Shown here piece by piece: positions 9,829 through 40,412 of a stretch of DNA of 64,000 nt; positions within the stretch are counted from its first letter, which is position 1; each line of letters starts with the position of its first letter. The position numbers and the translations under genes are program-made. This stretch comes from a bacterium (GTDB taxonomy: Bacteria > Sysuimicrobiota > Sysuimicrobiia > Sysuimicrobiales > Kaftiobacteriaceae). Under the pieces are notes generated by a model. That model ran no database searches. It saw nothing but the letters and a program-made list of their open reading frames with translations, and had not been told where the DNA came from. Location: assembly GCA_036505015.1 (NCBI GenBank), contig DASXUC010000053.1, positions 38,232 to 102,231 of the forward strand. The letters run 5' to 3'.

Positions 9829-10032
9829 ATGCATCAGCACCCGCCCGGGCCGCCACCGCCCGGTCCCCCGGTTCCGCCCGGTCCCCCGGGTCCGCCACCG
9901 ATGCCACCAGAACCGCCGATCCCGCCGGGTCCGCCCGAACCGCGCCCCCAGCCCCGTACGAACCCGAGTCCTCAATTGTACGATTCGCGGCAGATTTCTC
10001 TCGGGTTCGTCCGGGGCCAGGACACGGGTTAG
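9829..10032 (+). CDS. Proline-rich 67-aa protein (PPGP repeats), unknown function
   Basis: ATG preceded by GGAGGAGG at 9813-9820. Product is MHQHPPGPPPPGPPVPPGPPGPPPMPPEPPIPPGPPEPRPQPRT... Low complexity, so the coding status is uncertain. Confidence 0.4.
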   Translation: MHQHPPGPPPPGPPVPPGPPGPPPMPPEPPIPPGPPEPRPQPRTNPSPQLYDSRQISLGFVRGQDTG

Positions 10033-13981: not shown

Positions 13982-14029
13982 GTTACCGCAGAGGGGCCGG
14001 CAGGCGGCCCCCCTGCGGATGGATGGAGG

Positions 14030-15565
14030 CTACGGGACGCTGGTGACCCAGAGCGACCGGAAATACCCGCCCGGATTCGGGACGAACCCCGCGACCCGCT
14101 TGTTGATGCCCACGATGTAGCCCTGGTAGGTGAGCACGTAGTACGGCAGATCGGACGCGATGATCCGTGCGATCTCCCGGTAGATGCGCGCGCGCTCATT
14201 GGGGTCGGACTTCTGCCGTCCTTCTTCCAACAGCGCGTCGACGCGCGGGTTGTTGTACTTTTCCCAGTTGCTGCTGCCCTTGGTGTTGAACTGGTTGTAC
14301 ATCCCGCGGTCGGGATCGACCAGTCCCAGCCAGCCGACCAGCGTGACCTGGTAGTTCCCGGCCAGCAGCGCCTGCAGCAGCGCCGGGAACTCCGTGATCT
14401 CCGCCCGCGCCTCGATGCCGTAGGACCGGAAGATGCTCACCAGCAGTTCCACGACCTGCACGCGGTTGGGATCCTCGCTGTGCGTGCGGATCACGATGGA
14501 GAGGTTGCGGCCGCCCTGGTCGAGGATGCGATCGTTGTTCGTGTCCCGCCATCCCGCTTCCGCCAGCAGCGCCCTGGCCCGCGCGACGTCGTAGCCGGGC
14601 TGCGTCACCTCATCGGTGTAGATGCCCGCCCAGGCCGGGATCAGCATCGAGTTTGCCGGCTTGTCCATGGACTGGTAGATCTGCCGCACGATCGTCTGCT
14701 GCGGGATCAACGCGGCGAGGGCCCGGCGGACCCGGACGTCCCTGATGACGGGATCGGCCTGGTTCATGTTCAGGTAGGTGATCCCCAAGCCGGTCATCTC
14801 GGTCACGTTCAGTCGGGAGTTGTTCTTCATCCGGGCCACGTCCTGCGGCGACAGCGGCGAATGGATCAGGTCGACATCGCCGGACTCCAACGCCGCGGCG
14901 CGGGTGGTGTTGTCGGGGATGATGTTGAAGATGACCTGGCTGAGTTTCGGCGCGCCCCGGAAGTAGTTCGGGTTGGCTTCCAGGACGATCCGGCTGTTGC
15001 GCTGCCACGACACGAACTTGAACGCGCCCGTCCCCATGGGACGGCTGGAGTAGTCGGCGCCGAGCTGTTCGGCGGCGCGCTTGGAGACGATGCCCATGTC
15101 CAGGTACTTCAGCAGTGGTGCGTAGGGGGCGCTGAGCGTGAACCGCACGGTCAGGTTGTCGACCGCTTCGATCTTGCTGATCGGGATGTACAGCCCGCGC
15201 AAGGGTGCCCGGAACGCCGGATTGAGGATCGTCTCGAAGGTGTAGACGACGTCCTCGGCCGTCAGCGGGGACCCGTCCTGAAACCGCACGCCGCTCCGGA
15301 GCTTGAACACCCACACGGTGGGAGAAACTTCGGTCCAGGACTCCGCCAGCACCGGCCGGGGTCGCAGCTGCGGATCCAGCTCGATCAATCCATCGTAGAC
15401 CTGCTCGATCACCCGGCGCGCCGTGGTATCGTTGGCCAGCCGCGGATCGAGCGTACCCGCATCGACGTCGATGCCGATGCGCAGCACCCCGCCGGCGGGC
15501 GCGGCCCCGACATGAAATGCCGTGCCCATCACCAGCACAAGCAGCAGCGCGAGAGCGATTCGCAT
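14030..15565 (-). CDS. ABC transporter substrate-binding protein, family 5 (peptide/nickel)
   Basis: Signal peptide, size and family-5 SBP pattern (LDPRLANDTTARRVIEQVYDGLIELD). Confidence 0.85.
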   Translation of the reverse strand: MRIALALLLVLVMGTAFHVGAAPAGGVLRIGIDVDAGTLDPRLANDTTARRVIEQVYDGLIELDPQLRPRPVLAESWTEVSPTVWVFKLRSGVRFQDGSPLTAEDVVYTFETILNPAFRAPLRGLYIPISKIEAVDNLTVRFTLSAPYAPLLKYLDMGIVSKRAAEQLGADYSSRPMGTGAFKFVSWQRNSRIVLEANPNYFRGAPKLSQVIFNIIPDNTTRAAALESGDVDLIHSPLSPQDVARMKNNSRLNVTEMTGLGITYLNMNQADPVIRDVRVRRALAALIPQQTIVRQIYQSMDKPANSMLIPAWAGIYTDEVTQPGYDVARARALLAEAGWRDTNNDRILDQGGRNLSIVIRTHSEDPNRVQVVELLVSIFRSYGIEARAEITEFPALLQALLAGNYQVTLVGWLGLVDPDRGMYNQFNTKGSSNWEKYNNPRVDALLEEGRQKSDPNERARIYREIARIIASDLPYYVLTYQGYIVGINKRVAGFVPNPGGYFRSLWVTSVP

Positions 15566-25826: not shown

Positions 25827-25976
25827 ATGAGAACGGCAGTCGCTGGTCTGCTCGCTGCAATGTTATTGCTGGTCGCCGTGCCCGCCACAGTCCTCGCCGG
25901 AACCGGCGGCGAACGACCCGGGAGCGGGGCTGCGGGACCCGCACCTCAGGGACACGGCGATGGCTGGCTGCTGTAG
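25827..25976 (+). CDS. 49-aa secreted peptide candidate
   Basis: Below the ORF-track cutoff. ATG preceded by AGGAGGGCAGGGGAGG. Product is MRTAVAGLLAAMLLLVAVPATVLA|GTGGERPGSGAAGPAPQGHGDGWLL. The stop lies 3 nt before the listed ORF of the XRE-TPR regulator. Confidence 0.5.
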   Translation: MRTAVAGLLAAMLLLVAVPATVLAGTGGERPGSGAAGPAPQGHGDGWLL

Positions 25977-26045
25977 CGATTGACCCTGGCAGCCGCATCG
26001 GTGGGACCTCACGGCTCCTGGCGCGGGGTCCGCGGGAGGGCATCG

Positions 26046-27329
26046 ATGACGCTGGGACAACAGCTGAGATCGGCCCGCCGGGCCCGTAAGATGACCCAGC
26101 GGGAACTTAGCGGGGGCACCCTGTCGGAAAGCTTCATCAGCATGGTCGAGCACGACAAGGTGCGCCCGTCGCTGGAGACACTCGAGCTGTTTGCGCGCCG
26201 ACTGAACGTGCCGGTCGCGACGCTCCTCGAGAGCATCCAGCCGTCTCAGCGCTCGACCGATCTTGAGATCCGTCGCTGCGAAGCGCTGCTCCGTCAGCAC
26301 CGGTTCACCGACGCGCTGGAAGGATTCTCGCGTCTGGCTCCGCTGGTCGCGAGGGATGGAGTTGAGGCGGCGGTTCGCGTGAGGTGTAGGCTCGGCCTGG
26401 GGCAGGCCCTGGCGGGTACGCGCCAGCTTGACTTGGCCGAGCCTCACCTGCAACAGGCGTACCAGGAGGCCCGCGAGGCCGGCGATCCCGGGCTCCTGGG
26501 CGCGGCGGCGAACGCCTGGGGATTCCTCTGCTTCCGCGCCAGGAAGTTCGCCCTCGCCCAGGAGGTCCTTGAAGAGGCCGCCTCGCGCCTGCGGGGCGTC
26601 TCGGAACATGGCGAGATGCTCGGAAAGATCCTCGCCAATCTCGGACGGGTGTTCGTCGAGTTGGGCCTGCCGGTGGAGGCGATGAAGATGTACCGGGAAG
26701 CCGGCGCACTGCTGGGTCCGTCCGCGGACCCTGCCCATCGCGCCTTGCTGCACTTCAACATGGGCATCGCCTCCGAGCAGCAGCGGGCCTTCGACCAGGC
26801 GCAGTGGCACCTGGACCAGGCCCTCGAACTGTTCCGTCTCCAGGAAAACATCCACCTGCTCTCCGTCGTGCAGCGCAGCATAGGCATCATGCGCCTGGAG
26901 CAGGGCGCCCCCGGCGATGCACTGGCGCCGCTGGAGCAGAGTCTGCGGCTCGCACAGCAGGTCGGCGACGCTGAAGGAACGGCGCAGTCGATGGTGGAGC
27001 TGGCCCGTGTGCACATCCGGACTGGGTCCGCCGCGGACGGACGGCGGCTGGCTACTGAGGCCGCGAAGGTCGCCGCCCGGATCGGTGATCCCTTAGAGGG
27101 CGCGCGCGCGGACCTGGTGCTGGCGGAAGCGGCGCAGGCGGCGGGTCATACCTCCGAGGCTCATTCCCGGCTCCGAACTGCGATTGCCGTCTTCGAGGGG
27201 CTGGGCGCGGCAGCCGATTTGGGCCGCGCGCACCGATCCCTCGGGGAATCGCTGCTCCGCACCGGCAGGCCGGCCGATGCCGCCGTGCACCTCGCCCGTG
27301 CGCTGGAGCTGATCGGCCGCAACCCATGA
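26046..27329 (+). CDS. XRE-family HTH + TPR regulator
   Basis: ATG 26046 (MTLGQQLRSARRARKMTQRELSG...SMVEHDKVRPSLETLELFARRLNV is an HTH_3 motif). TPR-like helical repeats fill the remaining ~350 aa. Confidence 0.75.
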   Translation: MTLGQQLRSARRARKMTQRELSGGTLSESFISMVEHDKVRPSLETLELFARRLNVPVATLLESIQPSQRSTDLEIRRCEALLRQHRFTDALEGFSRLAPLVARDGVEAAVRVRCRLGLGQALAGTRQLDLAEPHLQQAYQEAREAGDPGLLGAAANAWGFLCFRARKFALAQEVLEEAASRLRGVSEHGEMLGKILANLGRVFVELGLPVEAMKMYREAGALLGPSADPAHRALLHFNMGIASEQQRAFDQAQWHLDQALELFRLQENIHLLSVVQRSIGIMRLEQGAPGDALAPLEQSLRLAQQVGDAEGTAQSMVELARVHIRTGSAADGRRLATEAAKVAARIGDPLEGARADLVLAEAAQAAGHTSEAHSRLRTAIAVFEGLGAAADLGRAHRSLGESLLRTGRPADAAVHLARALELIGRNP

Positions 27330-28500: not shown

Positions 28501-28929
28501 CTAGCCGTCGCCGAGGCTCTTGCGGACGGCGTCGATGAGTTCTGAGGGACTGAAGGGTTTGGTGACGATGCGGTCGGCGCCTGACTGCAGCGCGCGGGCG
28601 GTCATTTCCTGAGTCCCGAACCCGGTGATCAGCACCACGGCCACGTTGGGCCGCAGCGCTTTCGCCGCCTCGAGCACTTCCAGACCGGATACCACCGGCA
28701 TCCGCAGGTCACAGACGATGAGGTCAAACAACTCATCCGTGACCAGCCGCACCGCCTCGACGCCGCCGGCGGCCACCGTGACGCGATAGCCGGCCCGCGC
28801 GAGCACACGGGCGCACAGTTCCCTGATCGGCTCCTCATCATCCACGACGAGGACGTGCCGTGCCGTCACGACCGGACCGTCCGAGTCTTGCGGCATCAGG
28901 GTACTGCGGCTCATCACGGCATCCATCAT
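28501..28929 (-). CDS. Single-domain response regulator (CheY-like receiver)
   Basis: VLVVDDEEPIRELCARVL...DLIVCDLRMPVVSGLEVL...VVLITG. The start overlaps the kinase stop. Confidence 0.85.
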   Translation of the reverse strand: MMDAVMSRSTLMPQDSDGPVVTARHVLVVDDEEPIRELCARVLARAGYRVTVAAGGVEAVRLVTDELFDLIVCDLRMPVVSGLEVLEAAKALRPNVAVVLITGFGTQEMTARALQSGADRIVTKPFSPSELIDAVRKSLGDG

Positions 28930-31382
28930 GAGGCTGCCGGGACCGCGGGAACGCGAATCACAAACTTCGTACCCTGACCGGGTACGCTGGCCACGTCGAT
29001 CGTCCCGCCGTGCTGCTCGATGATGCGCTTGCTGATGGCCAGCCCCAGCCCCGTGCCCTGGCTGCCCTTCTTGGTCGTAAAGAACGGATCGAAGATCTTC
29101 GGCAGGTGCGCCGGATCGATCCCGACGCCCGAATCCTGGAAGACGATCTCGACCTGCGGGGTGCGGCCGACCTCCGGGGCGCTGCGCGCGGTGATGTCCA
29201 CGACACCGCCCCGCGGCATCGCGTCGATCGCGTTGTTCAGGAAATTGATGAACACCTGCTTGAGTCCGTTGACGTCGGCGAGGATGGACGGCAGCACGTG
29301 GTCGAAGTGGGTGGTGATGGTGACGTGCTGCGCCCGCTGCTTCACCAGCGGCAACACGCTCTCGATCACGCTCTCCACCTGCGTCGGTTCCTCCTCCGTG
29401 CCGGTCTGCCGCGCGTAATCCAGCAGGTTGCGCACGATCTCGCGCGCCCGGATCGCCTCGTTCTCCACGACCTGGAGGTCCGCGCGGATCGGGTCGTCCT
29501 TGCCGGCCTCGCTCAGCAGCAGCGACGTGTAGCCCAGCACGCTGGTCAGCGGGTTGTTGATCTCGTGCGCCACGAACGCGGCCAGCTCACCGATCGTCGC
29601 CAGCTTCGCCGACTGCACCAGCTGCAACTGGGTGCGTTCCAGCTCTTCCATCTGCGTCCGCTGGCGCTCGTAGAGGCGCGCATTCTCAATGCCCACCGCG
29701 ATCCCGTCGGCCAGCATCTGCAGCATCGAGACGTCGTCCGGCGAGAACGTCACCCCCGGCCGCTGCCAGACGCGCAGCACCCCGCTGGCGCGGTCGTGGG
29801 TCAGGATCGGGATGTCGGTGCAGCGCTCATCGGGTCCCACCGGCGGGAGAGGGTCGTCCCCCTCCCGCAGGACCACTTCCACGCGCGAGAAGCCGAATGA
29901 CTCCTCGATCAGGCGGGAGGTCTGTTGCAGGAGGATGTCGACGTTGAGGATGGTCGCGATCTTGCGTGTCGCCTGGGTGATCGCGCTGAGCAGCGCGCTG
30001 CGGCGCCGCTCCTGGCCGAACAGCTGGGCTTTCTCGATGGCCACGGCGGCCTGGCTGGCCATCGTGGAGAGGAGATCGATGTTCGACGGCGTCGTTTCGC
30101 GCAGCTCCCCCCCGATGATGATCAGCCCGATGAGGTGATCGCGCAGCTTCATGGGCAGCGTGATCACCGCGGTGGTATCCGACTGCGCATCTCCCATGCA
30201 CAGCTCGCGCACCAACGCCGGGTCGGCGGCGGCGTCGATGACCGTGGCGTGTTCGGCTTCCACGACGCGTCGCATGGCCGGGTCGTCGATCGGACGCAGC
30301 CGCGGTGGCCGGCGCCCTCCGTTGACCTGCCAGACCGCGAACGACAACTGCCTGGCGCTGGCTTCGTAGACCCCGATGCCCAGCAGGTGCAGGGGAATCG
30401 TGCCCCCGATTTGCGTCGCCAGCGCCTCGCTGATCTGGTCGAGCTCAATGCTGCTGGTCAGGGCCCGGGCCAGCTCGTTCAATCCGGCCAGTTCACGCGC
30501 GCGCCCCTCGGCGTCCACCTGGCTCTGCCGGATGCTGTCGGCGGCTTCCACCTGTCCGCGCAGCATCTGCGAGAGTGCCACCATCGGGACCACCAGCAGC
30601 GGCGTCAGCCAGGGGTTGACCAGCCAGAGGTTCGCGACGAGGACCCCCATCCAGATCAGCACAACCTCACGGAAGAAGTTGACCCGTGAGATCGCCCCGG
30701 TCTGGAAAAAGGACCGCCCGGTGGAGAGCACGATGACCTGTCCGACGAGCACGATGTTGGTGAAGTAGAACGTCAGGCCCACGACCAGCGCGAGGCCATA
30801 CCACTGCAAGGCCACCAGTCCCTGGGATTCGACCGGGCGAATGGCGTGCCAGAGCAGTCCGGCCGGGACGACCGATACCAGGTGCTGGGAGATGTTGAAC
30901 AGCCCACGCCGCCAGTCGTACCGTCGCTTGATCCAGTACCCAACCATCGTCACCGCGGCAATGACCAGCGTGCTGATCAACGGCAACAGCAGCAGCGAGG
31001 CCACCAGGACCGCGGTGAGCAGGGAATAGGAAATGCGGGCTTCGGCGGTGGTCGTGGGCATCTGCACGCCCACGAGCTGGGCGACCAGCGCCGCCCCCAG
31101 GAGCAGGACGAAGGGGACATTGAGAACGATCGTGCCCGGCGTCAACAGTACCGCGATCGGCGCCGAAAACGCGCCGAGGGCGACGACCGCCAGGATGTAG
31201 TACTGGGCGGGCAGCGGCAGCCCGGCGGCCGTCCGGGACGGAGGAGCAGGAAGAGTCGTGCCTGTCGATGGTGCGGATGCGCCCTGTCCGCCGGAAAGCA
31301 GCCGCCGGCCCCAACCCCGCAGTGGGCCGACGACCGCGGGAGCCGGCCTGCTCACCTCTTGACCTCCACGGACCGAAGACAC
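28926..31382 (-). CDS. Polytopic sensor histidine kinase (about 8-9 TM, two GAF-like domains, HisKA, HATPase_c)
   Basis: GTG start at 31382. Hydrophobic N-terminal ~280 aa with short loops. H-box AAFVAHEINNPLT. N/G boxes FINFLNNAIDAM, FQDSGVGI and GTGLGLAISKRI. Confidence 0.85.
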   Translation of the reverse strand: MSSVRGGQEVSRPAPAVVGPLRGWGRRLLSGGQGASAPSTGTTLPAPPSRTAAGLPLPAQYYILAVVALGAFSAPIAVLLTPGTIVLNVPFVLLLGAALVAQLVGVQMPTTTAEARISYSLLTAVLVASLLLLPLISTLVIAAVTMVGYWIKRRYDWRRGLFNISQHLVSVVPAGLLWHAIRPVESQGLVALQWYGLALVVGLTFYFTNIVLVGQVIVLSTGRSFFQTGAISRVNFFREVVLIWMGVLVANLWLVNPWLTPLLVVPMVALSQMLRGQVEAADSIRQSQVDAEGRARELAGLNELARALTSSIELDQISEALATQIGGTIPLHLLGIGVYEASARQLSFAVWQVNGGRRPPRLRPIDDPAMRRVVEAEHATVIDAAADPALVRELCMGDAQSDTTAVITLPMKLRDHLIGLIIIGGELRETTPSNIDLLSTMASQAAVAIEKAQLFGQERRRSALLSAITQATRKIATILNVDILLQQTSRLIEESFGFSRVEVVLREGDDPLPPVGPDERCTDIPILTHDRASGVLRVWQRPGVTFSPDDVSMLQMLADGIAVGIENARLYERQRTQMEELERTQLQLVQSAKLATIGELAAFVAHEINNPLTSVLGYTSLLLSEAGKDDPIRADLQVVENEAIRAREIVRNLLDYARQTGTEEEPTQVESVIESVLPLVKQRAQHVTITTHFDHVLPSILADVNGLKQVFINFLNNAIDAMPRGGVVDITARSAPEVGRTPQVEIVFQDSGVGIDPAHLPKIFDPFFTTKKGSQGTGLGLAISKRIIEQHGGTIDVASVPGQGTKFVIRVPAVPAAS

Positions 31383-31436: not shown

Positions 31437-31452
31437 AGCAACTTCCATGCCA
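31437..31452 (-). promoter_or_regulatory. Sigma-54 (-24/-12) promoter for kinase-CheY operon
   Basis: Minus strand reads TGGCATggaagTTGCT, 54 nt upstream of the kinase start. Confidence 0.8.
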
Positions 31453-31480
31453 GAACGGGGCGAAAATCCGTCTGTTGCCA

Positions 31481-31528
31481 GGTAGCCACGAGCCATCGCT
31501 TCAGGCTACCCGGCTACCGGTCTACCGG
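31481..31528. repeat. Tandem octamers GCTACCCG GCTACCGG TCTACCGG with an upstream inverted GGTAGCC
   Basis: 31505-31528 holds three tandem 8-mers. GGTAGCC (31481-31487) is the complement of GGCTACC (31504-31510). Confidence 0.6.
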
Positions 31529-31619
31529 TGCAAGGCGGCAGTGGGGACCCGCCGGCGCCCGCGTATTACGGTGCGCAGACGGGCCCCGCCGCCGATGAGC
31601 CTCGGTGCGAAAGGCGCAG

Positions 31620-31772
31620 TTACTCCCAGGTTGCCCCGGTAATCGTGAACCCGCCGCCTCCTGAAAGTACTGGATCCGAGGGCTTCCCGTTTCCATTGCC
31701 CCCCCAGGAGATCGACGTGGCCGCCAGCAGCATTGCTGCCACCAGCAGAGCGGTCATCAGCTTCTTGATCAT
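31620..31772 (-). CDS. 50-aa secreted Gly-rich peptide, paralog 1
   Basis: Below the ORF-track cutoff. RBS GAGAGGAGG. Product is MIKKLMTALLVAAMLLAATSISWGGNGNGKPSDPVLSGGGGFTITGATWE. Compared with paralog 2 over the aligned codons there are 11 synonymous versus 7 (mostly conservative) non-synonymous codon differences. Confidence 0.8.
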   Translation of the reverse strand: MIKKLMTALLVAAMLLAATSISWGGNGNGKPSDPVLSGGGGFTITGATWE

Positions 31773-31814
31773 CTACAGGCGCCTCCTCTCGAATTAGGCT
31801 CAACCTCCAAGAGG

Positions 31815-31830
31815 AGCAAGAACGATGCCT
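31815..31830 (-). promoter_or_regulatory. Sigma-54 (-24/-12) promoter for peptide paralog 1
   Basis: Minus strand reads AGGCATcgttcTTGCT, 42 nt upstream of ATG 31772. Confidence 0.7.
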
Positions 31831-31865
31831 CAGGGGGGACTGGTCCAAAAGAATCTTGCCAGACG

Positions 31866-31902
31866 CAAAAAGGACGACGGCCGGCCGGGATGGCCAACCG
31901 TC
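31866..31902 (-). terminator. Terminator of peptide paralog 2
   Basis: Stem GACGG-cc-GGCC / GGCC-aa-CCGTC (31876-31902), followed on the minus strand by a CCTTTTTGC tract. Confidence 0.55.
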
Positions 31903-31953
31903 GCCGATGACTTCGATGCGCCGGACGTTTTGACTAGCGAACGGACGTGCGGG

Positions 31954-32103
31954 TTACTCCCAGGTTGCCCCGGTAACGGAGAACCCGCCGCTTCCTGAGA
32001 GTACTGGATCCGCGGGCTTCCCGCCTCCATTCGCTCCCCAGGAAATGGACGTCGCCATCAACAGCATCGCAGCTACGAGCAGGGCGGTCAAAAAACTCTT
32101 CAT
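31954..32103 (-). CDS. 49-aa secreted Gly-rich peptide, paralog 2
   Basis: RBS GACGGAGG. Product is MKSFLTALLVAAMLLMATSISWGANGGGKPADPVLSGSGGFSVTGATWE. It shares the C-terminal TGATWE and central KP.DPVLSG with paralog 1. Confidence 0.8.
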   Translation of the reverse strand: MKSFLTALLVAAMLLMATSISWGANGGGKPADPVLSGSGGFSVTGATWE

Positions 32104-32148
32104 CGCAAGGCCTCCGTCGTTCAGTATGGTCGACTAACCATGAATAAG

Positions 32149-32164
32149 AGCAAGAAGCGTGCCA
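32149..32164 (-). promoter_or_regulatory. Sigma-54 (-24/-12) promoter for peptide paralog 2
   Basis: Minus strand reads TGGCACgcttcTTGCT (perfect consensus), 45 nt upstream of ATG 32103. Confidence 0.85.
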
Positions 32165-32273
32165 GTCACGGCCCAGTTGCAGCAAAATGAGTCCGTTATG
32201 TCACCGCATCACTTTTCTCGCGCCGCCGCGGCATGCTATCGTGCGTGCGCAGTCACGCGCAGGAGGGCCCCCC

Positions 32274-33620
32274 GTGTCGGTCAGCGCTCTGGTCGTCGAC
32301 GACGAAGAGAATATCCGCGGTCTGCTCCAGAAGATCCTGACCGAGGAAGGTTTCGATGTCGAGACCGCCACCACCGGCGAAGCCGGCCTGGAACGCTATC
32401 AGGCCCGTCCCTTCGACCTCGTGCTGGTCGACCTCCGCCTGCCCACGATCAGCGGGCTCGAGGTTCTCCAGAACCTTGTCTCCGCCGATCCCGATGCACT
32501 GGTCATCATCCTCACCGGCTACAGCACGGTGGAAACCGCGATCAAGGCGATCAAGCTGGGGGCGTACGATTACGTCGCCAAGCCGTTTCGCCCCGAAGAG
32601 TTGATGGTCGTGGTCAACCAGGCGCTGGAGCGGAACAGGCTGCTGAAAGAAAACCAGCTCCTGCAGCAGGAACTGATGGGCACGTTCAAGTTTCAGGGCA
32701 TCGTCGGTAACGCGCCCAGGATGCGGGAGGTGCTGGCGCTGGCCGCCCGGGTGGCGCCGACGGACGCGACCGTGTTGATCTTCGGCGAGACCGGGGCCGG
32801 CAAGGAGTTGCTGGCGCGATCGATCCACGCGCAAAGCGCGCGGGCCAACGGGCCGTTCGTGGTGGTGAACTGCGGCGCGATCCCCGAAACCCTCCTCGAA
32901 ACCGAACTGTTCGGCCACGAGAAAGGTGCCTTCACCGGCGCGGTGACCAGTCACGTCGGGCGGTTTGAGCGGGCGGCGGGCGGGACGATCTTCCTCGACG
33001 AGATCGGGGATATGAGCCCGGCGATGCAGGTGAAGTTGCTGCGCGTCCTGCAGGAGAAGGTGGTCGAGCGGGTCGGCGGCAGCAAGCCCATCGACGTCGA
33101 CGCCCGGGTGCTCGCAGCGACGCACAAGGACCTGCGCGAGGCGATCACCACCGGGCAGTTCCGGGAAGACCTGTACTACCGCCTCAGCGTGATGCCGCTG
33201 GTCGTGCCCCCGCTGCGCGATCGGGCCGATGATATCCCGATCCTGGCCGACTTCTTCATGAATAAGTACGCGGTGGCCTTCTCCAAGCGGATCAAGGGGT
33301 TTTCGCCGCTGGCGATGCGCCGGCTCCGCGCCCATCGCTGGCCCGGCAACGTGCGCGAGCTCGAGTACACCGTGGAACGCGCGGTCATTCTCGCCGCCGG
33401 ACCGATGATCGAGGCCGACGACATCTGGCTGGACGGGCAGAATGCCGATCCGACGAAGTTCCCCAAAGCGTACTCGCTGGTGGAAAGCGAGCGCCGGCAC
33501 ATCCAGGCCGTGCTGAAGATGACCGGCTGGAATCTGGATGACACCGCCGGCGTGCTGGGACTGGACCGCGACACCCTGCAGGACAAGATCACGACCCACC
33601 GGCTCGAGCCCGAATCGTAA
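32274..33620 (+). CDS. NtrC-family sigma-54-dependent response regulator (REC + AAA+ + Fis-type HTH)
   Basis: GTG 32274 preceded by AGGAGGG. Receiver [14 protein letters not shown]...[10 protein letters not shown]. Walker [15 protein letters not shown] loop (HEKGAFTGA). C-terminal [19 protein letters not shown]. Confidence 0.9.
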
Positions 33621-33668: not shown

Positions 33669-33684
33669 TGGCACGGAACTTGCT
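33669..33684 (+). promoter_or_regulatory. Sigma-54 (-24/-12) promoter for HD-GYP-rpoN operon
   Basis: TGGCACggaacTTGCT, 49 nt upstream of ATG 33734. Confidence 0.85.
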
Positions 33685-33733
33685 ACAGGCATCCGGCAGT
33701 GTCGTATGGTGCGAACGTGGCGCCGTGAGGTGA

Positions 33734-35206
33734 ATGCCGGTGATGCCGAAGGCGAAAGTCCTGATCGTGGACGACGAACCGTCGATCCGCGAGTTGTGCG
33801 CGAGAATTCTGGGAACCTCCTACGAAGTGGAGACGGCCCCCGACGGGCCCACGGCGATCCGCATGGCCGCAGCGGCGGCGCCTGATCTGTTGCTGGCCGA
33901 CCTGCGCATGCCTGGGATGAGCGGGCTCGACGCGGCGCGGCGGATCGTCGCCGATGCGCCCGAAGTCTCGGTCGTGATCATGACCGGGTTCAGCCAGTTC
34001 GACAGCCTGCTGGAGACCGTGCGGTTCGGCGTCAACGGTTTCGTACTCAAACCGTTCACGCCTGATGATCTCCGCCGGACCGTGGAAGACGGGCTGCGCC
34101 GCGGGCAGTACTTCAAACGTACCGCGCGGCTGCGCTCGCTGGCTCCGATCCTCGATCTGCGCGAAGGGAAGATCAACGGCGATCCGACCCGAATCTTCCA
34201 GACAATCTGTGAAACCGTGCAGCGTGAGCTCGACGCCGATTCGGTGACGCTGGTGGCGCTGGACGAAGACGGCCAGGAGGTGGCCGTCACATCGTCGGTG
34301 GGCAGTCCCGGCGCCGAGCCCGTCACCGTGACGCGGCGGCCCGGCGACGTCGACTGGGTCCCCCCGGTCGTGCCGACCAACGGCAACGGCAACGGGAACG
34401 GTACAGGGCACCACGACGACGGCCAGGTGTTGTCGATGCCGCTGCGCACCGGCGGCGCGGTGGTCGGGGCGCTCACCGTGAAGCGGCGCGATGGCCCGTT
34501 CACCGCGACGGACCGCGACCTGCTGCGGCTGATCTGTGCGCAGAGCAGCGTCGCCATCGAAAACATCCGGTTGTTCACGCACCTGCGCCAGTCCTACTGG
34601 AACACCGTCTATGCGCTGGCGGCGACCGTGGACCTGCGCGATCACCCGACGCGCGGTCACTCCGACCGGCTGGCGCGGTACGCGGTGGCGATCGGCGCCC
34701 GCTTGGGGCTGAAGCCCGACCGGCTCGACGATCTGAAGATTGCCGCGCTGCTCCACGATATCGGCAAGATCGGCATCGGCGACGGCGTGCTACTGAAGCC
34801 GGGCGATCTCACCGCCGAAGAGTACGACCAGATGAAGACCCACACCCTGATGGGCGCGAAAATCCTGGCCATGGCGGGGTTCTCGCCGCGTGTCGTCGAG
34901 GCGGTGCTGTTCCATCACGAACGCTATGACGGATCCGGGTACCCGCTGGGACTGCGGGAAGATCAGATCCCGCTGGAAGCGCGCATCCTCACCGGCGCCG
35001 ACGCGCTGGAGAGCATGACCAGTCCCCGCATGTACCGCCAGGCCATGCCGGTGCCCGCCGCCGTGACCGAGCTCGTGCGCGGGCGGGGGACGCAGTTCGA
35101 CCCGCAGATCATCGACGCCTTGATGGGGTGCCTGGATTCAGGAGAGTTCCACCAGTCACTGGCCGGTGGGCACGATTCGCTCCAGTTGCTCGCGGAGACC
35201 AGCTAA
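33734..35206 (+). CDS. Response regulator with GAF and HD-GYP (c-di-GMP phosphodiesterase) domains
   Basis: Receiver VLIVDDEPSIRELCARIL...DLLLADLRMPGMSG. HD motif LLHDIGKIGI. Intact HHERYDGSGYP. Confidence 0.85.
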   Translation: MPVMPKAKVLIVDDEPSIRELCARILGTSYEVETAPDGPTAIRMAAAAAPDLLLADLRMPGMSGLDAARRIVADAPEVSVVIMTGFSQFDSLLETVRFGVNGFVLKPFTPDDLRRTVEDGLRRGQYFKRTARLRSLAPILDLREGKINGDPTRIFQTICETVQRELDADSVTLVALDEDGQEVAVTSSVGSPGAEPVTVTRRPGDVDWVPPVVPTNGNGNGNGTGHHDDGQVLSMPLRTGGAVVGALTVKRRDGPFTATDRDLLRLICAQSSVAIENIRLFTHLRQSYWNTVYALAATVDLRDHPTRGHSDRLARYAVAIGARLGLKPDRLDDLKIAALLHDIGKIGIGDGVLLKPGDLTAEEYDQMKTHTLMGAKILAMAGFSPRVVEAVLFHHERYDGSGYPLGLREDQIPLEARILTGADALESMTSPRMYRQAMPVPAAVTELVRGRGTQFDPQIIDALMGCLDSGEFHQSLAGGHDSLQLLAETS

Positions 35207-36558
35207 TGGACCTCCGTATCGCCCCGCAGGCGAAAACCGGGCTGCACCAGCGCATGGTGCCCAAATTGATGATGGTGAACACCCTGCTGGTGCTGCCGCT
35301 GGACCAGTTGCTGGCCCGGATCGAGCAGGAACTGGCGGAGAACCCCGCGCTGGAACGCGACGACACCGTGCGCCCGGATGAGATCACCTGGTCGCGCGCC
35401 GGGGAGCGGTCCGCGGCGTCCTGGACGCCCGATGATGAGGATCGCGACCCGTTTGCGGGCCTCACGTCGTCGGTGAGCCTGCACGATCACCTGCTGCTGA
35501 CGCTGCAGGCCGAGCGCTTCACGCCGCGCGAGCACGCCATCGGCGCGCGGCTGATCGGCTACATCAACGATCGCGGGTACCTCGACGTCGCGATCGTGCA
35601 GGTCGCGCAGGAACTGAACGCGGAACCCGACGATGTCGAGCGCGTGCTGCGGCGTATCCAGCGGTTCGATCCGATCGGGATCGGCGCCCGCAGTGTGCAG
35701 GAATCGTTGAGCGTGCAGCTGGAGATGCTCGATGACGTGCCGGCGCGTCGGCTGGCCCAGCAGCTCGTCGCCGCGTACCTCACCCAGCTGGCCGAGCACC
35801 GGTTTGATGAGCTGGCGAAGGCGCTGGGGGCGCGCCCCGCGGAGGTCAAAGAGGCGCTGGCGTTTCTGCAGACCCACTGCTACGCGTCGCCCGGCGAGCG
35901 CTACCGCGCCGACCAGACCGGCGGCGCCGTCGCCCCGTCTGAGGTGGCCTATCCCGACGTGTTGATCCGTCGCACCGACGACGGCTTCGCGGTCGAGCTG
36001 ACGCATCAGGACGGCAGCGCCCTGCGCGTGAACGCCTTCTACGATGACCTGCGCCGCCAGCTCCGCCGCAGCGCGGGGTCGGGGGAGTGGTCCAAAGATC
36101 ACGTTCGCGACTACGTCACACGGGCGAAGTTGTTCGTCGAAGCCCTGCAGCGGCGCAACTGGACGCTGGCCAACATCGTCCAGGCCGTGGTCAGCGCGCA
36201 GTGGGAGTATCTCGACCGCGGCGACGCGCACCTGAAGCCGCTGACGAAAGCCATGATTGCGGCGGAGCTCGGCATCAGCGAATCTACGGTCAGCCGGGCG
36301 CTGGACAGCAAATTCGTGCAGCTGCCCAGCGGCCGGGTGAGCAGTTTCGACGTCTTCTTCGACCAGTCGGTGCCGGTGAAGGAGAAGATCCGCGCCATCG
36401 TCGCCGCCGAGCCGCACCCGCTGACCGACGAAGAGATCGCCACCGCCCTCACCCGCGTCGGCTACCGCGTCGCCCGCCGTACCGTCGCCAAGTACCGCGA
36501 AGCCATCTCCATCCCGCCGTCCACGAAGCGCACGCCGGCCCTCACCGCCGCCAGCTAA
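35206..36558 (+). CDS. rpoN: RNA polymerase sigma-54 factor
   Basis: ATG 35206 overlaps the upstream stop (TAATG). N-terminus MDLRIAPQAKTGLHQRMVPKLMMVNTLLVLP...LEQELAENPALE. RpoN box ARRTVAKYREAISIP at the C-terminus. Confidence 0.9.
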   Translation: MDLRIAPQAKTGLHQRMVPKLMMVNTLLVLPLDQLLARIEQELAENPALERDDTVRPDEITWSRAGERSAASWTPDDEDRDPFAGLTSSVSLHDHLLLTLQAERFTPREHAIGARLIGYINDRGYLDVAIVQVAQELNAEPDDVERVLRRIQRFDPIGIGARSVQESLSVQLEMLDDVPARRLAQQLVAAYLTQLAEHRFDELAKALGARPAEVKEALAFLQTHCYASPGERYRADQTGGAVAPSEVAYPDVLIRRTDDGFAVELTHQDGSALRVNAFYDDLRRQLRRSAGSGEWSKDHVRDYVTRAKLFVEALQRRNWTLANIVQAVVSAQWEYLDRGDAHLKPLTKAMIAAELGISESTVSRALDSKFVQLPSGRVSSFDVFFDQSVPVKEKIRAIVAAEPHPLTDEEIATALTRVGYRVARRTVAKYREAISIPPSTKRTPALTAAS

Positions 36559-36655: not shown

Positions 36656-36671
36656 TGGCACACCGGTTGCT
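36656..36671 (+). promoter_or_regulatory. Sigma-54 (-24/-12) promoter for GGDEF*-Roadblock operon
   Basis: TGGCACaccggTTGCT, 42 nt upstream of ATG 36714. Confidence 0.85.
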
Positions 36672-36713: not shown

Positions 36714-37790
36714 ATGGCAGAGCGGATGCAGACAAAACGGACGGCGCCATCACCCACAGCACGCAATGGGTCGGCGCGCGGCGGACGGGGATGGACGGCG
36801 CCGGCGCGCGGGGGCCCGGCTGCGGTGGTGGAACTCGAACGCGAACCCCTTGTGGCCCGGCTCGCCGAACAAGCCGAGGAGATGGCGCTGCAGTTGGAGT
36901 GCATGAAGCTGGTGGATGAGGGCCTGCCCACCGAACAAGCGTACAAGCAGTTCCTCGACGTGATGCACCGCGCGGTGCCGTTTGAGCACGGCACCCTGTA
37001 CGTCGCGGAGTGGGAGACGGGCCGTCTCGCGCCCGTGGCCGTCCGCGGCGCCCGGGTGGACATGGCCGTCCGCGCGCCGTCTGCGGCCCCCGGTCCGTCC
37101 GGCTGGATGGTCCAAGCCAGCGCGAACGTCCGCGGCAGCGGCGACGGTGTGGTCGTTGACGGGACGCGGGGGGCGCTGGCCTTTCCGCTCATCCATAACG
37201 GACTGGTCGCCGGGGTCGTGGCGCTGGCCCGCCGCAACCGATCGTTCTCGGAGGAGGAGTCGGCCCGGCTGGCCCGCCTCGCGCACCCGCTGGTCACCAC
37301 GCTGTCCCGGCTGCGCCGCGAGGCGAGATTGCGGGAGCTGGTGTTCACCGACGTGCAGACCGGATTGAGCAACCGGCATCACTTCGTGGCCCGGATCGAG
37401 GAAGAGTTGCAGCGCAACCGTACGCAGGGGGGAGACTTCGTCGTGGCCGTCCTGGAACTGGCGGACGATCCGGCGGCCGCGGAGATGTCCCACACCCGCG
37501 TAGCGCAGTCGTTCGCCCGCGTCCTGCAGCGGTCGATGCGCGGCAGCGACGTGGCCTCGCACCTGGAAGACGGCCGGTTCGGCCTGCTGCTTGTCGGCGT
37601 GGGCCGGGAACAGGCCGTGTCCATCGTCGACCGGATCACGCGCAAGGTGCTGGCCGATCCAGAACTCGCCAACGACCGCAGCGCGATCCGTCTGCGGACC
37701 GGGCTCAGCGGGACGGGGACCGGCGTGCATTCGGTGGATGAGATGCTGGACGATGCAACCGCAGCGCTGGCGACGTTTGACGCCGCATGA
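36714..37790 (+). CDS. GAF-like domain + degenerate GGDEF domain protein
   Basis: GGDEF-domain start TDVQTGLSNRHHF. The active-site position reads SDVASHLEDGRFGLLL, i.e. EDGRF instead of GG[DE]EF. Confidence 0.75.
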   Translation: MAERMQTKRTAPSPTARNGSARGGRGWTAPARGGPAAVVELEREPLVARLAEQAEEMALQLECMKLVDEGLPTEQAYKQFLDVMHRAVPFEHGTLYVAEWETGRLAPVAVRGARVDMAVRAPSAAPGPSGWMVQASANVRGSGDGVVVDGTRGALAFPLIHNGLVAGVVALARRNRSFSEEESARLARLAHPLVTTLSRLRREARLRELVFTDVQTGLSNRHHFVARIEEELQRNRTQGGDFVVAVLELADDPAAAEMSHTRVAQSFARVLQRSMRGSDVASHLEDGRFGLLLVGVGREQAVSIVDRITRKVLADPELANDRSAIRLRTGLSGTGTGVHSVDEMLDDATAALATFDAA

Positions 37791-37827: not shown

Positions 37828-38319
37828 ATGGAATCGTTGAGTGGTGCACTGCGCACGATGAAGACGCGATCGCTGGCCGAATCGGCGTTCGTAGCGTCAT
37901 CCGACGGGCTGGTGCTCGACGCGATCAGCGACGACGGGGTGGCGGTGGACTCCATCGCCGCGTACGCGGCCGGCAGCGTGTCGGTGGCGGAACGGATGGG
38001 CGAGGACGCCGAGCTCGGCGCCCCGCAGTCGGTCATCCACCTCTACGGCAACAAGACGCTGATGATCGCCCCGGTGGGCCCGGCCCTCCTGGTGCTCGTC
38101 GGCAACGGGCGCTCACAGCTGGGGATGATGCGCGTCCAGCTGCAGGCCGGTCTGGCAGATCTCCGCAGCGCCTTGGAGCGGGATCTGTTCGGACCCGGCG
38201 CCGAGCAGCCCGCGGCCGACGCGTCGGCGCCGGCCAGCGCCCCGGCGGCGACGAACGGTCACACGACCCCGGCGCGTCCCAACCTGGACGCGATTCTCGA
38301 AGCGGCGGTGGCCCGCTAA
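37828..38319 (+). CDS. Roadblock/LC7 (MglB-like) domain protein with Ala/Pro-rich tail
   Basis: ATG 37828 preceded by GAGGAGG. SAFVASSDGLVLDAI...IHLYGNKTLMIAPVGPALLVLVG is the Robl/LC7 pattern. Confidence 0.7.
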   Translation: MESLSGALRTMKTRSLAESAFVASSDGLVLDAISDDGVAVDSIAAYAAGSVSVAERMGEDAELGAPQSVIHLYGNKTLMIAPVGPALLVLVGNGRSQLGMMRVQLQAGLADLRSALERDLFGPGAEQPAADASAPASAPAATNGHTTPARPNLDAILEAAVAR

Positions 38320-38334
38320 GGCACGGAAGTTGCT
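38319..38334 (+). promoter_or_regulatory. Sigma-54 (-24/-12) promoter for secreted protein A
   Basis: AGGCACggaagTTGCT, 127 nt upstream of GTG 38462. Confidence 0.7.
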
Positions 38335-38461: not shown

Positions 38462-38893
38462 GTGTTCGCCTACACAGCGCGGCACGGGAATCGGATCTGG
38501 CGCTTCGCCACAGCAATCCTCGCGGGATTGGCCGTGCTCGCCGCGCTGCAGATGCCAGTGCGCGCGCAGTCCTCTGCTTCCGTGATCTCCATCTCCGTGC
38601 CGGTCGCCCAGGTGCTCGACGGCGCAACCGTCAGCGCCGTGCCTGCGGGAACCCTTGTCAGTGGGCAGCTGACCGTGAAGAGCAACGTGCCGTGGATGCT
38701 GGTGGTCAACGTCGACACCGGCGAGCCCGCGCTGGTCACCTGGTCGCCTGAGGCCCTCTGGCAGCCACTTCCCGCACACGGCGTGGTCCTGCAAGGTCCC
38801 AAGGGCATTCATCACCTGATCTACCGCCTGCGCGCGGCGCCCGCCGCGAAGCTGCAGACGATCGTCCGCTTCTCGCTCTCGCCCTCCCCGTAA
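38462..38893 (+). CDS. Secreted small beta-sandwich-like protein A (putative fibre/pilin-like subunit)
   Basis: Signal peptide ...LAALQMPVRAQS. Motif LTVKSNVPWMLVVNV is shared with protein B. The C-terminal strand is TIVRFSLSPSP. Confidence 0.55.
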   Translation: MFAYTARHGNRIWRFATAILAGLAVLAALQMPVRAQSSASVISISVPVAQVLDGATVSAVPAGTLVSGQLTVKSNVPWMLVVNVDTGEPALVTWSPEALWQPLPAHGVVLQGPKGIHHLIYRLRAAPAAKLQTIVRFSLSPSP

Positions 38894-38971: not shown

Positions 38972-38987
38972 TGGCACCGAAGTTGCT
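38972..38987 (+). promoter_or_regulatory. Sigma-54 (-24/-12) promoter for protein B / chaperone-like / usher-like operon
   Basis: TGGCACcgaagTTGCT (perfect consensus), 66 nt upstream of ATG 39054. Confidence 0.85.
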
Positions 38988-39053: not shown

Positions 39054-39554
39054 ATGAGCACGTATCTCGGGTTCGCGCGCATCGCTATCATCGCCGTACT
39101 GCTGGTAAGTCTCGCCGCCGGAGCCGGATTCGGTGCCGCTGGTGGGTCACAGAGCGTGACCACCGCGGCGGCGGCAGGCATCGACATTACCGTATCGGGA
39201 TCCGCGTCGATTGCTTCGACCGCGCCGGGGGCCTGCGGCACGAGCGGCACGACCGTCAACGTCAAGAGCAACAAGGCGTGGAACCTGCAGGTCCGTTCAG
39301 ATCCGTCGAGTTATTCGAACGGAAAGGCGAAGAACGGGACCACGGAGATGACCGACGCCTTCCAGTACAAGGGCGGCGACGTCTCCTCGTACACGGCGAT
39401 CACGGCATCGTACGGGAACCTCTACAGCTCAAACCAGGTCAAGACCACAGGTTCAGGCGTGGACGTGAGCGTTAACTATCAGCAGTGCGTGGAGTATGAG
39501 GACTCGCCGGGCAACTACACGATCGTCGTTGAGTACCTCGGCGTCCAGCCGTAG
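39054..39554 (+). CDS. Secreted small beta-sandwich-like protein B (putative fibre/pilin-like subunit)
   Basis: RBS AGGAGGG and a signal peptide. Carries the VNVKSNKAWNLQVRS motif. The C-terminal PGNYTIVVEYLGVQP is reminiscent of the terminal strand of CU pilins, SCPU and WxL-type domains. Confidence 0.6.
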   Translation: MSTYLGFARIAIIAVLLVSLAAGAGFGAAGGSQSVTTAAAAGIDITVSGSASIASTAPGACGTSGTTVNVKSNKAWNLQVRSDPSSYSNGKAKNGTTEMTDAFQYKGGDVSSYTAITASYGNLYSSNQVKTTGSGVDVSVNYQQCVEYEDSPGNYTIVVEYLGVQP

Positions 39555-39566
39555 CGGTCCACGGAT

Positions 39567-40397
39567 GTGACGGGGGCGCGGGTCCAGACGATGCGGGCTA
39601 GAGTGCGGGGGATCACGCTGGCCTGCGCCCTCTTCCTCTTCACGGCGGCGCTGCCGCTGCACGCCGACACCCTGCGGTTCGGGCTCACGCCCCCGGACGT
39701 CGAATTGGTCCCCGCTCCGGGCGGCACCGCCAGCGGCACCCTGGTCGTCTACAATCGTTCCACCCGAGCGCTGCACTTCCGCGTGGTGACCCAGGATATG
39801 TTCATCCGTCCCAGCGGGGTGATGGAAGTCCTGAAGCCCGCCAGCACGGCATGGTCGGTGGCGGCGGCGACCCGTCTGGCGCCGGCGGAGTTCGATCTCG
39901 ATCCCAATCAGCAGATGGCGGTGCGGGTGGTCGTCACCGCTCCCCGCGACGCGCGGGGCGGTTTGTACGGCGCGATCGTCGTCTCGCCGACGCCCATGCT
40001 GCAGTCGAACGGCCCGCGCGGCACGTTCGCGGTCGTCGCCCCGAAGCTGGCGGCGCGGCTGCTCGTGCCCATTGACGGCACGACGGCGCTGCAAGGCGCG
40101 ATCGTCAACATGCTTGCGGCCGCCGTTCCCGGAAAGGGCGTCGACGTCAAAGTCGCCTTCCGCAACAGCGGCAACGTGCACGTGCGTGCCGACGGCGTGA
40201 TCACGCTGCTCCGCAACGGCGACGTGGTGGCCAGGGCTCCGATGGAAGAGTCGCTGGTGCTGCCGGGCACCGTACGGGAGTTCCGGCTGCTCCTGCCCAC
40301 CGGCCGTCTGGCCCCCGGCTCGTACACCGTCCGGGCTGTGATGGACTTCGGCGGCGACGTCATGGTCGCCGGGGAAGTTCTGTTCGTCTCCCGGTGA
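39567..40397 (+). CDS. Secreted two-Ig-fold protein (PapD/DUF916-like putative chaperone)
   Basis: Signal peptide (ITLACALFLFTAALPLHA). Two ~110-aa beta-rich halves (GTLVVYNRSTRALHFRV...; VKVAFRNSGNVHVRADGVI...PGSYTVRAVMDFG). The start may be ATG 39591. Confidence 0.5.
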   Translation: MTGARVQTMRARVRGITLACALFLFTAALPLHADTLRFGLTPPDVELVPAPGGTASGTLVVYNRSTRALHFRVVTQDMFIRPSGVMEVLKPASTAWSVAAATRLAPAEFDLDPNQQMAVRVVVTAPRDARGGLYGAIVVSPTPMLQSNGPRGTFAVVAPKLAARLLVPIDGTTALQGAIVNMLAAAVPGKGVDVKVAFRNSGNVHVRADGVITLLRNGDVVARAPMEESLVLPGTVREFRLLLPTGRLAPGSYTVRAVMDFGGDVMVAGEVLFVSR

Positions 40398-40412
40398 GCC
40401 CGGTCGCCTCCC

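Follow-up and report, generated by a model that had tools for sequence, protein, structure and literature searches.

Tandem genes for short xxTWE peptides in a conserved kinase and sigma-54 locus of Sysuimicrobiota: candidate auto-inducing signals

Contig DASXUC010000053.1 of GenBank assembly GCA_036505015.1, from a bacterium of the phylum CSP1-3/Sysuimicrobiota, carries two short tandem peptide genes within a 64,000-nucleotide (nt) stretch (forward-strand positions 38,232 to 102,231; hereafter the window, in which all coordinates are counted from the first letter). The genes encode peptides of 49 and 50 amino acids (aa) that share a Sec-type signal and a C-terminal pentapeptide unit, xxTWE, and they stand between a polytopic histidine kinase and a divergently transcribed NtrC-type sigma-54 activator. 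Comparison with relatives establishes, at the level of sequence, the genes themselves, selection in their reading frame, their promoters, a strict synteny with the kinase and activator, and a repeat architecture in which the unit occurs up to four times. We tentatively favor the interpretation that the peptides are multi-copy secreted propeptides feeding back through the kinase, the activator and sigma-54.

Results

Two Peptide Genes With a Shared Design

An initial annotation, made from the letters of the window, had proposed two small secreted peptides here, and both open reading frames (ORFs) were recovered on the minus strand with identical coordinates and translations (Table 1). Its description of the surroundings also stood: ribosome-binding sites precede both start codons (GGAGG ~8 nt 5' of the 49-aa gene ATG and AGGAGG ~9 nt 5' of the 50-aa ATG), the boxes of a -24/-12 sigma-54 promoter could be located for each gene, the upstream (49-aa) copy carries a terminator hairpin at 31905..31873, and Pfam places the pair between the sensor kinase and the activator, with no modification or export gene among the adjoining neighbors.

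Pfam and NCBIfam searches with the peptides returned no family, and a literature search for the peptide motif strings gave irrelevant text matches only. Homology searches with the 50-aa peptide found six relatives of 47-53 aa, in which the N-terminus and a GATWE end are conserved and the middle is variable. A profile search of 1.84 billion representative proteins gave four matches, all of them family members, and a profile built from both kinds of peptide described below retrieved 86 clusters (90% identity), all labeled 'hypothetical' and all from metagenome-assembled genomes (MAGs) of CSP1-3/Sysuimicrobiota.

Across these 86 clusters the peptides begin with a signal segment of 23-26 residues that has one or two K/R (two in 79/86) and a hydrophobic core of 15-16 residues (83/86). 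Positions -5 to -1 read S, V/I, S (84/86 at -3), W and G (85/86 at -1), followed at +1 by Gln in 41 clusters and Ala in 24 (together 65/86). A rule-based check finds the basic n-region, the h-region and the small -3 and -1 residues of a Sec (type I) signal, and these dimensions and the -3/-1 pattern suggest a cleaved signal and not a membrane anchor; signal peptidase probably cuts after the Gly of S[VI]SWG. The mature part of 20-33 residues is rich in Trp (12%), Glu (14%) and Thr (17%), has a net charge of 0 to -8, and is almost devoid of Cys (a single residue in 1/86). It holds one to four xxTWE units, one in the clade of the window and one to four in tandem among deeper relatives. The unit hardly varies phylum-wide ([GST][AV]TWE). 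Of the 183 units, 133 follow a Glu or Asp; cleavage after Glu would yield pentapeptides of 560-620 Da. The peptides end in TWE, VWE, VWQ or xIW.

The initial annotation had called the peptides secreted and glycine-rich. The prediction of secretion holds, but glycine richness does not define the family, as the Gly/Asn-rich stretch is a variable, clade-specific spacer; judged by sequence conservation, the defining features are the Sec-type signal ending in S[VI]SWG and the C-terminal xxTWE unit. Other identities were considered and rejected, namely lipoproteins (almost no Cys), Tat substrates (no RR), type IV or Flp pilins, and lasso or other ribosomally synthesized and post-translationally modified peptides (RiPPs).

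Selection on the Reading Frame

Within the window, the two copies agree at 28 codons and differ at 11 synonymous and 10 non-synonymous codons, besides one indel; the count of 11 synonymous differences agrees with the initial annotation, whereas its seven non-synonymous differences become ten on recounting. Purifying selection, which had been read from this comparison, is borne out in the signal half (synonymous divergence, dS, 1.30; non-synonymous divergence, dN, 0.13) but not in the mature half, where dS (0.16) and dN (0.13) are similar and the DNA is nearly identical. This similarity suggests recent gene conversion rather than selection, or else co-selection by which a genome's mature peptides are kept similar to each other. 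The two flanking peptide copies of one relative (L001) likewise carry identical DPALVGDGGGYSLLGATWE.

Since the mature halves are near-identical in DNA, we base the argument for purifying selection on orthologues and on the repeat units. Orthologues within the clade of the window show, over the signal region, proportions of synonymous differences (pS) of 0.4-0.8 against non-synonymous proportions (pN) of 0.02-0.3 (for the proximal gene in L001, L004 and L006, pN 0.02 and pS ~0.5), and in the last seven codons pN is 0 with pS of 0.2-0.56. Similarly, copies of the xxTWE unit within single genes of relatives differ by 121 synonymous and only 6 non-synonymous codon changes, including AGC/TCN serine switches. 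These patterns indicate that the frame is translated and that each pentapeptide is individually maintained. Several overlapping spurious ORFs do occur in other frames, as would be expected if the two ORFs had arisen by chance in GC-rich DNA; this explanation is excluded by the orthologue pS and pN values, the repeat-unit codon counts with their large excess of synonymous changes, and length changes that are all in frame across the 86 homologous clusters, and the promoters, ribosome-binding sites and terminator are conserved as well, so that we regard its probability as negligible. The comparisons identify the peptide genes as real and translated in this frame.

Synteny and Tandem Units in Relatives

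Related loci were reached from the peptides (L001-L008 and L088-L093) and, separately, from the kinase (L009-L024), with L009 and L010 being the same contigs as L004 and L001. A search for co-occurrence, suggested by the initial annotation, placed the peptides beside the kinase and activator in every locus examined. The contigs of the relatives found with the peptide carry the activator and then, divergently, two to three peptide genes, the kinase gene and the receiver gene. The kinase search of GTDB representative genomes yielded 16 loci with a full-length or nearly full-length kinase match. The 14 loci other than L009 and L010 show 50-58% identity in the best segment and retain the whole gene order; their MAG titles name Armatimonadetes/Armatimonadota, 'Bacillati bacterium ANGP1' and Candidatus Calidihabitans tengchongensis, the last a named member of CSP1-3/Sysuimicrobiota (PMC11604079).

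Each kinase gene reached in this way has one to three short ORFs (44-56 aa) upstream of it; L019 has a single one, and a later scan found no second copy there. These ORFs encode the second kind of peptide, in which a signal-like segment ending in SVSWG is followed by tandem pentapeptides, as in SVSWG-GATWE-GATWE-GATWE-GFDAFGVWE (L022) and SVSWG-SVTWE-SVTWE-SVTWE-ALDAVVWE (L016), with SATWE three times in L023 and TATWE twice in L011. Look-ups from three repeat-type peptides led again to the same locus, so the linkage of peptide and kinase is not an artefact of kinase-based searching. By comparison, the window peptides are family members in which a Gly/Asn/Ser-rich spacer has replaced the internal units and left the terminal unit alone; the close relative L004 still carries GATWEGATWE.

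The promoters of the repeat-type clade differ by position: a sigma-70-like element (TTGACA-17-TACGCT in L015-L018) and a structured leader precede the first peptide gene, and sigma-54 promoters the later copies, an arrangement that would provide a basal source of peptide plus an amplifier. This conserved leader (L015 2914..3016, L016 2403..2505, L012 9322..9424 and equivalents) contains a variable hairpin enclosed by paired GAAGACC and GGGTCT, with ATCTCA after it; it has no match in Rfam, where a search of the window region and one relative's leader gave nothing above noise, and may be a stabilizing or regulatory 5' structure. The same clade, unlike that of the window, has two extra genes between the activator and the peptides with their own sigma-54 promoter (L022 8478..9306, minus strand; L090 5481..6201, minus strand, promoter 6227..6241, minus strand; L088 1..541). 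One is FlgN-like (25 bits in Pfam, below the cut-off, in L022; a listed FlgN match in L090) and the other weakly FlaG-like. In L088 a sigma-70-family sigma factor gene (Sigma70_r2/r3/r4, 269 aa) follows the GGDEF gene. Together these genes may link the regulon to flagellar control.

A Compact Sigma-54 Regulon

The peptide promoters lie 50-60 nt 5' of the ATG and have the GG and GC elements one helical turn apart that characterize -24/-12 promoters (TGGCAC-N5-TTGCW). The pattern GGCAYN5TTGCT occurs seven times in the 64-kb window against 0.21 expected, a number reached in 0/100 shuffles. All seven boxes fall within 31.4-39.0 kb, and all are found at orthologous positions in L001, L004 and L006. 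Their clustering, together with the gene content, indicates a compact regulon with its own sigma factor, activator and kinase. Moreover, as the kinase gene and the peptide genes each have a sigma-54 promoter, positive-feedback wiring is plausible. rpoN sits with the HD-GYP regulator gene behind one of these promoters (33669..36558), so sigma-54 would drive its own gene; basal expression presumably comes from read-through out of the activator gene.

In footprint alignments, the sequence 5' of the distal peptide promoter and of the kinase promoter contains conserved blocks. The candidate activator-site words CTGCGCAC and GGTAGCC are not enriched within the window, and we therefore claim no activator-binding motif. 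The region 31455..31625 (minus strand), which is both the 3' untranslated region (UTR) of the proximal gene and the region upstream of the kinase promoter, contains strong hairpins and three GGTAGCC/GGCTACC copies, which L001 and L006 lack.

TABLE 1. Features of the peptide locus and its surroundings in the window.
Feature	Coordinates	Strand	Evidence and remarks
Second Sec-type peptide gene, 49 aa, ending GHGDGWLL	25827..25976	plus	5.6 kb from the xxTWE genes
HTH_3-TPR regulator	25980..27329	plus	Pfam; starts four bases past the stop codon of the second peptide
Stand-alone receiver-domain response regulator	28501..28929	minus	Pfam; directly after the kinase gene; syntenic in relatives
Histidine kinase, 8 predicted transmembrane segments, GAF, HisKA, HATPase_c	28926..31382	minus	Pfam; topology read from N-terminal alignment
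Kinase gene sigma-54 promoter	31437..31452	minus	TGGCATGGAAGTTGCT; conserved along with 5' UTR block CTATCCTCGTAGGGGAACCCC
Long GC-rich hairpin without T-run, 3' UTR of proximal gene	31535..31593	minus	Folding of 171-nt region, z = -4.4
Kinase-proximal peptide gene, 50 aa	31620..31772	minus	MIKKLMTALLVAAMLLAATSISWG then GNGNGKPSDPVLSGGGGFTITGATWE; ORF; orthologues in L001, L004, L006
Proximal peptide sigma-54 promoter	31815..31830	minus	aGGCATcgttcTTGCT = AGGCATCGTTCTTGCT; kept in relatives
Intrinsic terminator after distal peptide gene	31873..31905	minus	14 bp GC-rich stem, then CTTTTTG; stem sequence kept in relatives
Distal (promoter-first) peptide gene, 49 aa	31954..32103	minus	MKSFLTALLVAAMLLMATSISWG then ANGGGKPADPVLSGSGGFSVTGATWE; ORF; member of the 86-cluster family
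Distal peptide sigma-54 promoter (-24/-12)	32149..32164	minus	TGGCACgcttcTTGCT = TGGCACGCTTCTTGCT; kept in L001, L004, L006
Divergent NtrC-type sigma-54 activator (REC, AAA+, HTH_8)	32187..33620	plus	Pfam, NCBIfam
Sigma-54 promoter before REC-GAF-HD-GYP and rpoN genes	33669..33684	plus	Pattern match; orthologous position kept
REC-GAF-HD-GYP response regulator (c-di-GMP phosphodiesterase type)	33734..35206	plus	Pfam
rpoN (sigma-54)	35128..36558	plus	Pfam
GAF-GGDEF gene sigma-54 promoter	36656..36671	plus	Pattern match; orthologous position kept
GAF-GGDEF protein	36714..37790	plus	Pfam
Roadblock/LC7-domain protein		plus	Pfam; in the divergent gene series
Sigma-54 promoter before 143-aa secreted protein gene	38319..38334	plus	Pattern match; orthologous position kept
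Predicted secreted protein, 143 aa, no assigned function	38462..38893	plus	
Surface module sigma-54 promoter	38972..38987	plus	Pattern match; orthologous position kept
Surface module	39054..42830	plus	166-aa secreted beta-rich, 276-aa predicted beta-sandwich and 805-aa Cu_amine_oxidN1 + SdrD_B-repeat proteins

Kinase, Activator and Other Neighbors

The N-terminal 300 residues of the kinase contain eight hydrophobic segments, with outer loops of only ~4-12 residues and conserved polar residues inside the segments. The window kinase matches the membrane sensor domain MASE9 (PF20972) weakly (E = 0.021, 15.2 bits against a cut-off of 24.3), and precomputed Pfam annotations of its orthologues list MASE9 in L001 and L002 and as 'faint' in L006. 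MASE9 has been proposed to bind its ligand, which is not known, within the membrane (bioRxiv 10.1101/2021.11.05.467447). A homology search with the kinase sensor domain alone produced 8000 short-word candidates and none at E <= 0.001, although common hydrophobic words possibly filled the list.

Orthologues of 448 aa indicate that the activator probably starts at the GTG at 32274, and orthologues of 450 aa that rpoN probably starts near 35206. The best NCBIfam matches of the activator are to the AtoC, PEP-CTERM PrsR, NtrC and ZraR models, all below cut-off. In the surface module, the 166-aa protein (39054..40397 region) has a signal-like N-terminus, a WxL-like 'AWNLQV' motif and the end YTIVVEYLGVQP; sequence and profile searches found no Pfam, NCBIfam or PDB relative, and its single-sequence AlphaFold model (mean predicted local distance difference test score, pLDDT, 47.6) was too poor for use.

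Farther away, 10029..15565 (minus strand) encodes SBP_bac_5 and two permeases beside an M24 peptidase and an AstE/AspA-type hydrolase and is unlinked to the peptide locus; the peptide ATP-binding cassette (ABC) importer at 12157..15565 was rejected as a partner of the peptides, as it sits with peptidase genes and looks metabolic. A PrsW protease, a nucleotidyltransferase and a cold-shock gene were likewise set aside as functional partners, being part of a genomic backbone conserved across the phylum.

A Second Peptide Family Beside an HTH_3-TPR Regulator

The window contains another short gene of similar design, whose product ends in GHGDGWLL and which directly precedes an HTH_3-TPR regulator gene (Table 1). 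Its orthologues occur directly upstream of that regulator in 14 loci (L022, L024, L092 and 11 others), and their common unit, AGHGGGELL, is tandem-triplicated in L022, L024 and L092. A signaling role is the standard interpretation for a propeptide next to a TPR receptor, as in the RRNPP systems, and by its sequence features this family together with its HTH_3-TPR regulator would constitute an RRNPP-like propeptide/receptor pair outside Bacillota. The same design, a signal peptide with a repeated C-terminal unit, at an RRNPP-like locus raised our confidence in the xxTWE peptides as signals; by analogy, the second family supports that role, short of proof.

Discussion

A Candidate Auto-Inducing Circuit

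The mechanism that we propose includes inferred steps: that the peptides are secreted and their signal removed, that they may be cut further after Glu, that the kinase senses them, and which way the feedback runs. The released peptide would be the auto-inducing ligand of the adjacent kinase with eight transmembrane segments, acting either as the whole mature peptide or as the ~560-620 Da pentapeptides cut after Glu. The kinase would phosphorylate the divergent NtrC-type activator, with the REC-only and REC-GAF-HD-GYP regulators as further probable targets, and the activator together with the locus-encoded sigma-54 would fire the seven clustered -24/-12 promoters, which serve the peptide genes, the kinase operon, the HD-GYP and rpoN genes, the GAF-GGDEF gene and the secreted/surface-protein module. 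The outcome would be a self-amplifying switch, sensing quorum or confinement, over cyclic di-GMP (c-di-GMP) and a cell-surface program. Autoinduced signaling had already been suggested in the initial annotation; the strict linkage to kinase and activator, the sigma-54 promoters and the tandem conserved units speak for that suggestion. By analogy, an exactly conserved short unit, usually flanked by acidic residues and variable in copy number, suggests the build of multi-copy pheromone and hormone precursors.

Several observations weigh against this interpretation. Pfam annotation of the neighbors in the window shows neither an exporter nor a processing protease in linkage with the locus. The unit is also near-invariant across the phylum, and diversification into specificity groups is the usual course for well-studied peptide pheromones. 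In the clade of the window the unit is single and has no acidic residue before it, making release of a pentapeptide less evident there. The conservation of S[VI]SWG exceeds what signal peptidase requires. Furthermore, the genomes are all MAGs from an uncultivated phylum.

Multiple copies, strong promoters, a terminator and UTR hairpins are equally expected of an abundant output product, and because the peptides and the surface module belong to one regulon, an alternative in which the peptides serve the surface module has to be weighed. The peptides would then be regulon outputs, such as abundant secreted, anionic, Trp-rich structural, adhesive or matrix parts or partners of the surface module, and the kinase would sense some other signal. 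Such a role agrees with a sigma-54 regulon that is common to the peptides and the 143-, 166-, 276- and 805-aa secreted or surface proteins, with two to three gene copies that each have a strong promoter, terminator and stabilizing hairpins fit for a high-abundance product, and with a near-invariant unit, of the kind expected from a structural interaction and not from a diversifying signal. Yet the peptide genes always adjoin the kinase, across the activator from the surface module, and the mature part of only 20-33 residues has a five-residue period with no amphipathic beta or helical pattern discernible in the sequences. The number of units also changes from one to four between close relatives, which is hard to fit with a fixed structural role, and on balance we consider this alternative unlikely, although a serious contender.

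The extreme conservation of S[VI]SWG would be better accommodated if an uncleaved small protein or a released signal peptide bound the membrane-embedded sensor and so exerted intramembrane feedback on the kinase. Intramembrane ligand binding has been proposed for MASE9-type sensors, and PilS-PilR control of the pilin gene pilA offers a precedent: PilA acts on PilS, as small membrane proteins such as MgrB act on PhoQ. This mechanism seems distinctly improbable here, as the core of 15-16 residues is variable in sequence and typical of a cleaved signal peptide and not of a transmembrane anchor, the small -3 and -1 residues are conserved, and the repeated, individually conserved extracytoplasmic xxTWE units would be left unexplained. 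The repeated core-like units and the invariant Trp could also recall RiPP-like precursors whose modifying enzymes are encoded elsewhere in the genome, for example with a modified Trp like the one near the C-terminus of ComX pheromones, whose sensor is a kinase with multiple transmembrane segments. We regard this as very improbable: the conserved locus holds no modification enzyme in any of the syntenic loci examined, a Sec-type signal would be unusual for cytoplasmically modified precursors, and the peptides have no Ser/Thr-Cys pattern and almost no Cys.

Auto-induction by secreted propeptides is the interpretation that we tentatively carry forward. To our knowledge, peptide-based cell-cell signaling has been worked out almost entirely in Bacillota, and the locus described here is a conserved, self-contained signaling candidate in an uncultured soil and hot-spring phylum. 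It brings together modules not known in combination, namely a propeptide that has a Sec signal and carries tandem units, a MASE9-like kinase with a polytopic sensor, an NtrC-type activator and a sigma-54 encoded in the locus, and GATWE or SVTWE peptides provide a concrete ligand hypothesis for a sensor class without a known ligand. A bolder proposal, which we advance with considerable doubt, would make the xxTWE peptides the natural ligands of a MASE9-class sensor, the first for this domain. The uncultivated phylum would then have a new quorum-sensing architecture, in which Sec-exported multi-copy propeptides are sensed by an eight-transmembrane kinase with a sigma-54 regulon dedicated to it, beside an RRNPP-like pair that would be the first outside Bacillota. 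In addition, the locus illustrates that genes of 45-55 residues, below routine ORF cut-offs, can form the conserved core of a regulon.

Comparison With Known Systems

The xxTWE peptides resemble the RRNPP propeptides of Bacillota and their phages (Phr, AimP, NprX, PapR) in their ~40-60-aa ORFs, Sec-type signal and C-terminal active part, and at the sequence level they have the features of a small Sec-dependent propeptide (10-100 aa) whose C-terminal unit is sometimes tandem-duplicated and which needs no dedicated exporter. In Rap-Phr systems, tandem pheromone duplication is found in Sec-exported propeptides that are matured by extracellular proteases (PMC11343458; PMC10075063). RRNPP systems are defined by a directly adjacent cytosolic TPR receptor of 250-500 aa (PMC10075063), whereas the genes beside those of the xxTWE peptides encode a membrane kinase and an NtrC-type activator; the closest HTH_3-TPR gene (25980..27329) is 4.3 kb off and has a different adjacent peptide of its own. 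The AimP_fam and NprX_fam models gave no significant match to the peptide (AimP_fam, E = 0.084, 13.1 bits, cut-off 35; NprX_fam, E = 0.34, 10.8 bits, cut-off 33; signal residues 1-17 only), and the lineage is CSP1-3/Sysuimicrobiota instead of Bacillota. With no adjacent TPR receptor and no model match, we do not count the xxTWE peptides as RRNPP members.

The PilS-PilR-PilA system likewise has a polytopic kinase and an NtrC-type activator flanking the gene of a small exported protein with a sigma-54 promoter. Class III pilin signals consist of a short basic leader, a Gly and a hydrophobic mature N-terminus with Glu5; in contrast, the xxTWE peptides lack both a type IV prepilin leader and a G|FTLIE-type N-terminus, their hydrophobic stretch precedes the conserved Gly and a polar acidic part follows it, and no pilus assembly genes were found by Pfam in the window. 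In LuxO circuits a cell-cell signal is relayed to a sigma-54 enhancer-binding response regulator, as it would be in our locus. With 341 bits to the LuxO model, well below its 800-bit cut-off, the activator does not qualify as a LuxO equivalog. The signal here would be a ribosomal peptide in place of a small molecule, and the locus has no phosphorelay protein and no Qrr-type small RNA. As for ComQXPA, Pfam finds no ComQ or polyprenyl-synthase-like gene in the locus.

In gene order the locus parallels comCDE, plnABCD and agrBDCA, where a peptide gene lies directly upstream of a gene for a polytopic kinase with short loops, followed by a response regulator gene, which is the classical layout of Gram-positive peptide-pheromone systems; auto-induction is likewise predicted here for both the peptide genes and the kinase gene. 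The differences lie in the Sec-type signal, where those systems use a double-glycine leader and ABC exporter, or AgrB (the conserved locus encodes neither a C39-peptidase ABC exporter nor an AgrB-type processing protein in any locus examined), in a kinase core of HisKA type with GAF domains, and in an output through an NtrC-type enhancer-binding protein with sigma-54 instead of a LytTR regulator. Taken together, these likenesses and differences suggest a putative variant form of peptide-based auto-induction, in which a Sec-exported propeptide would be coupled to a sigma-54 regulon.

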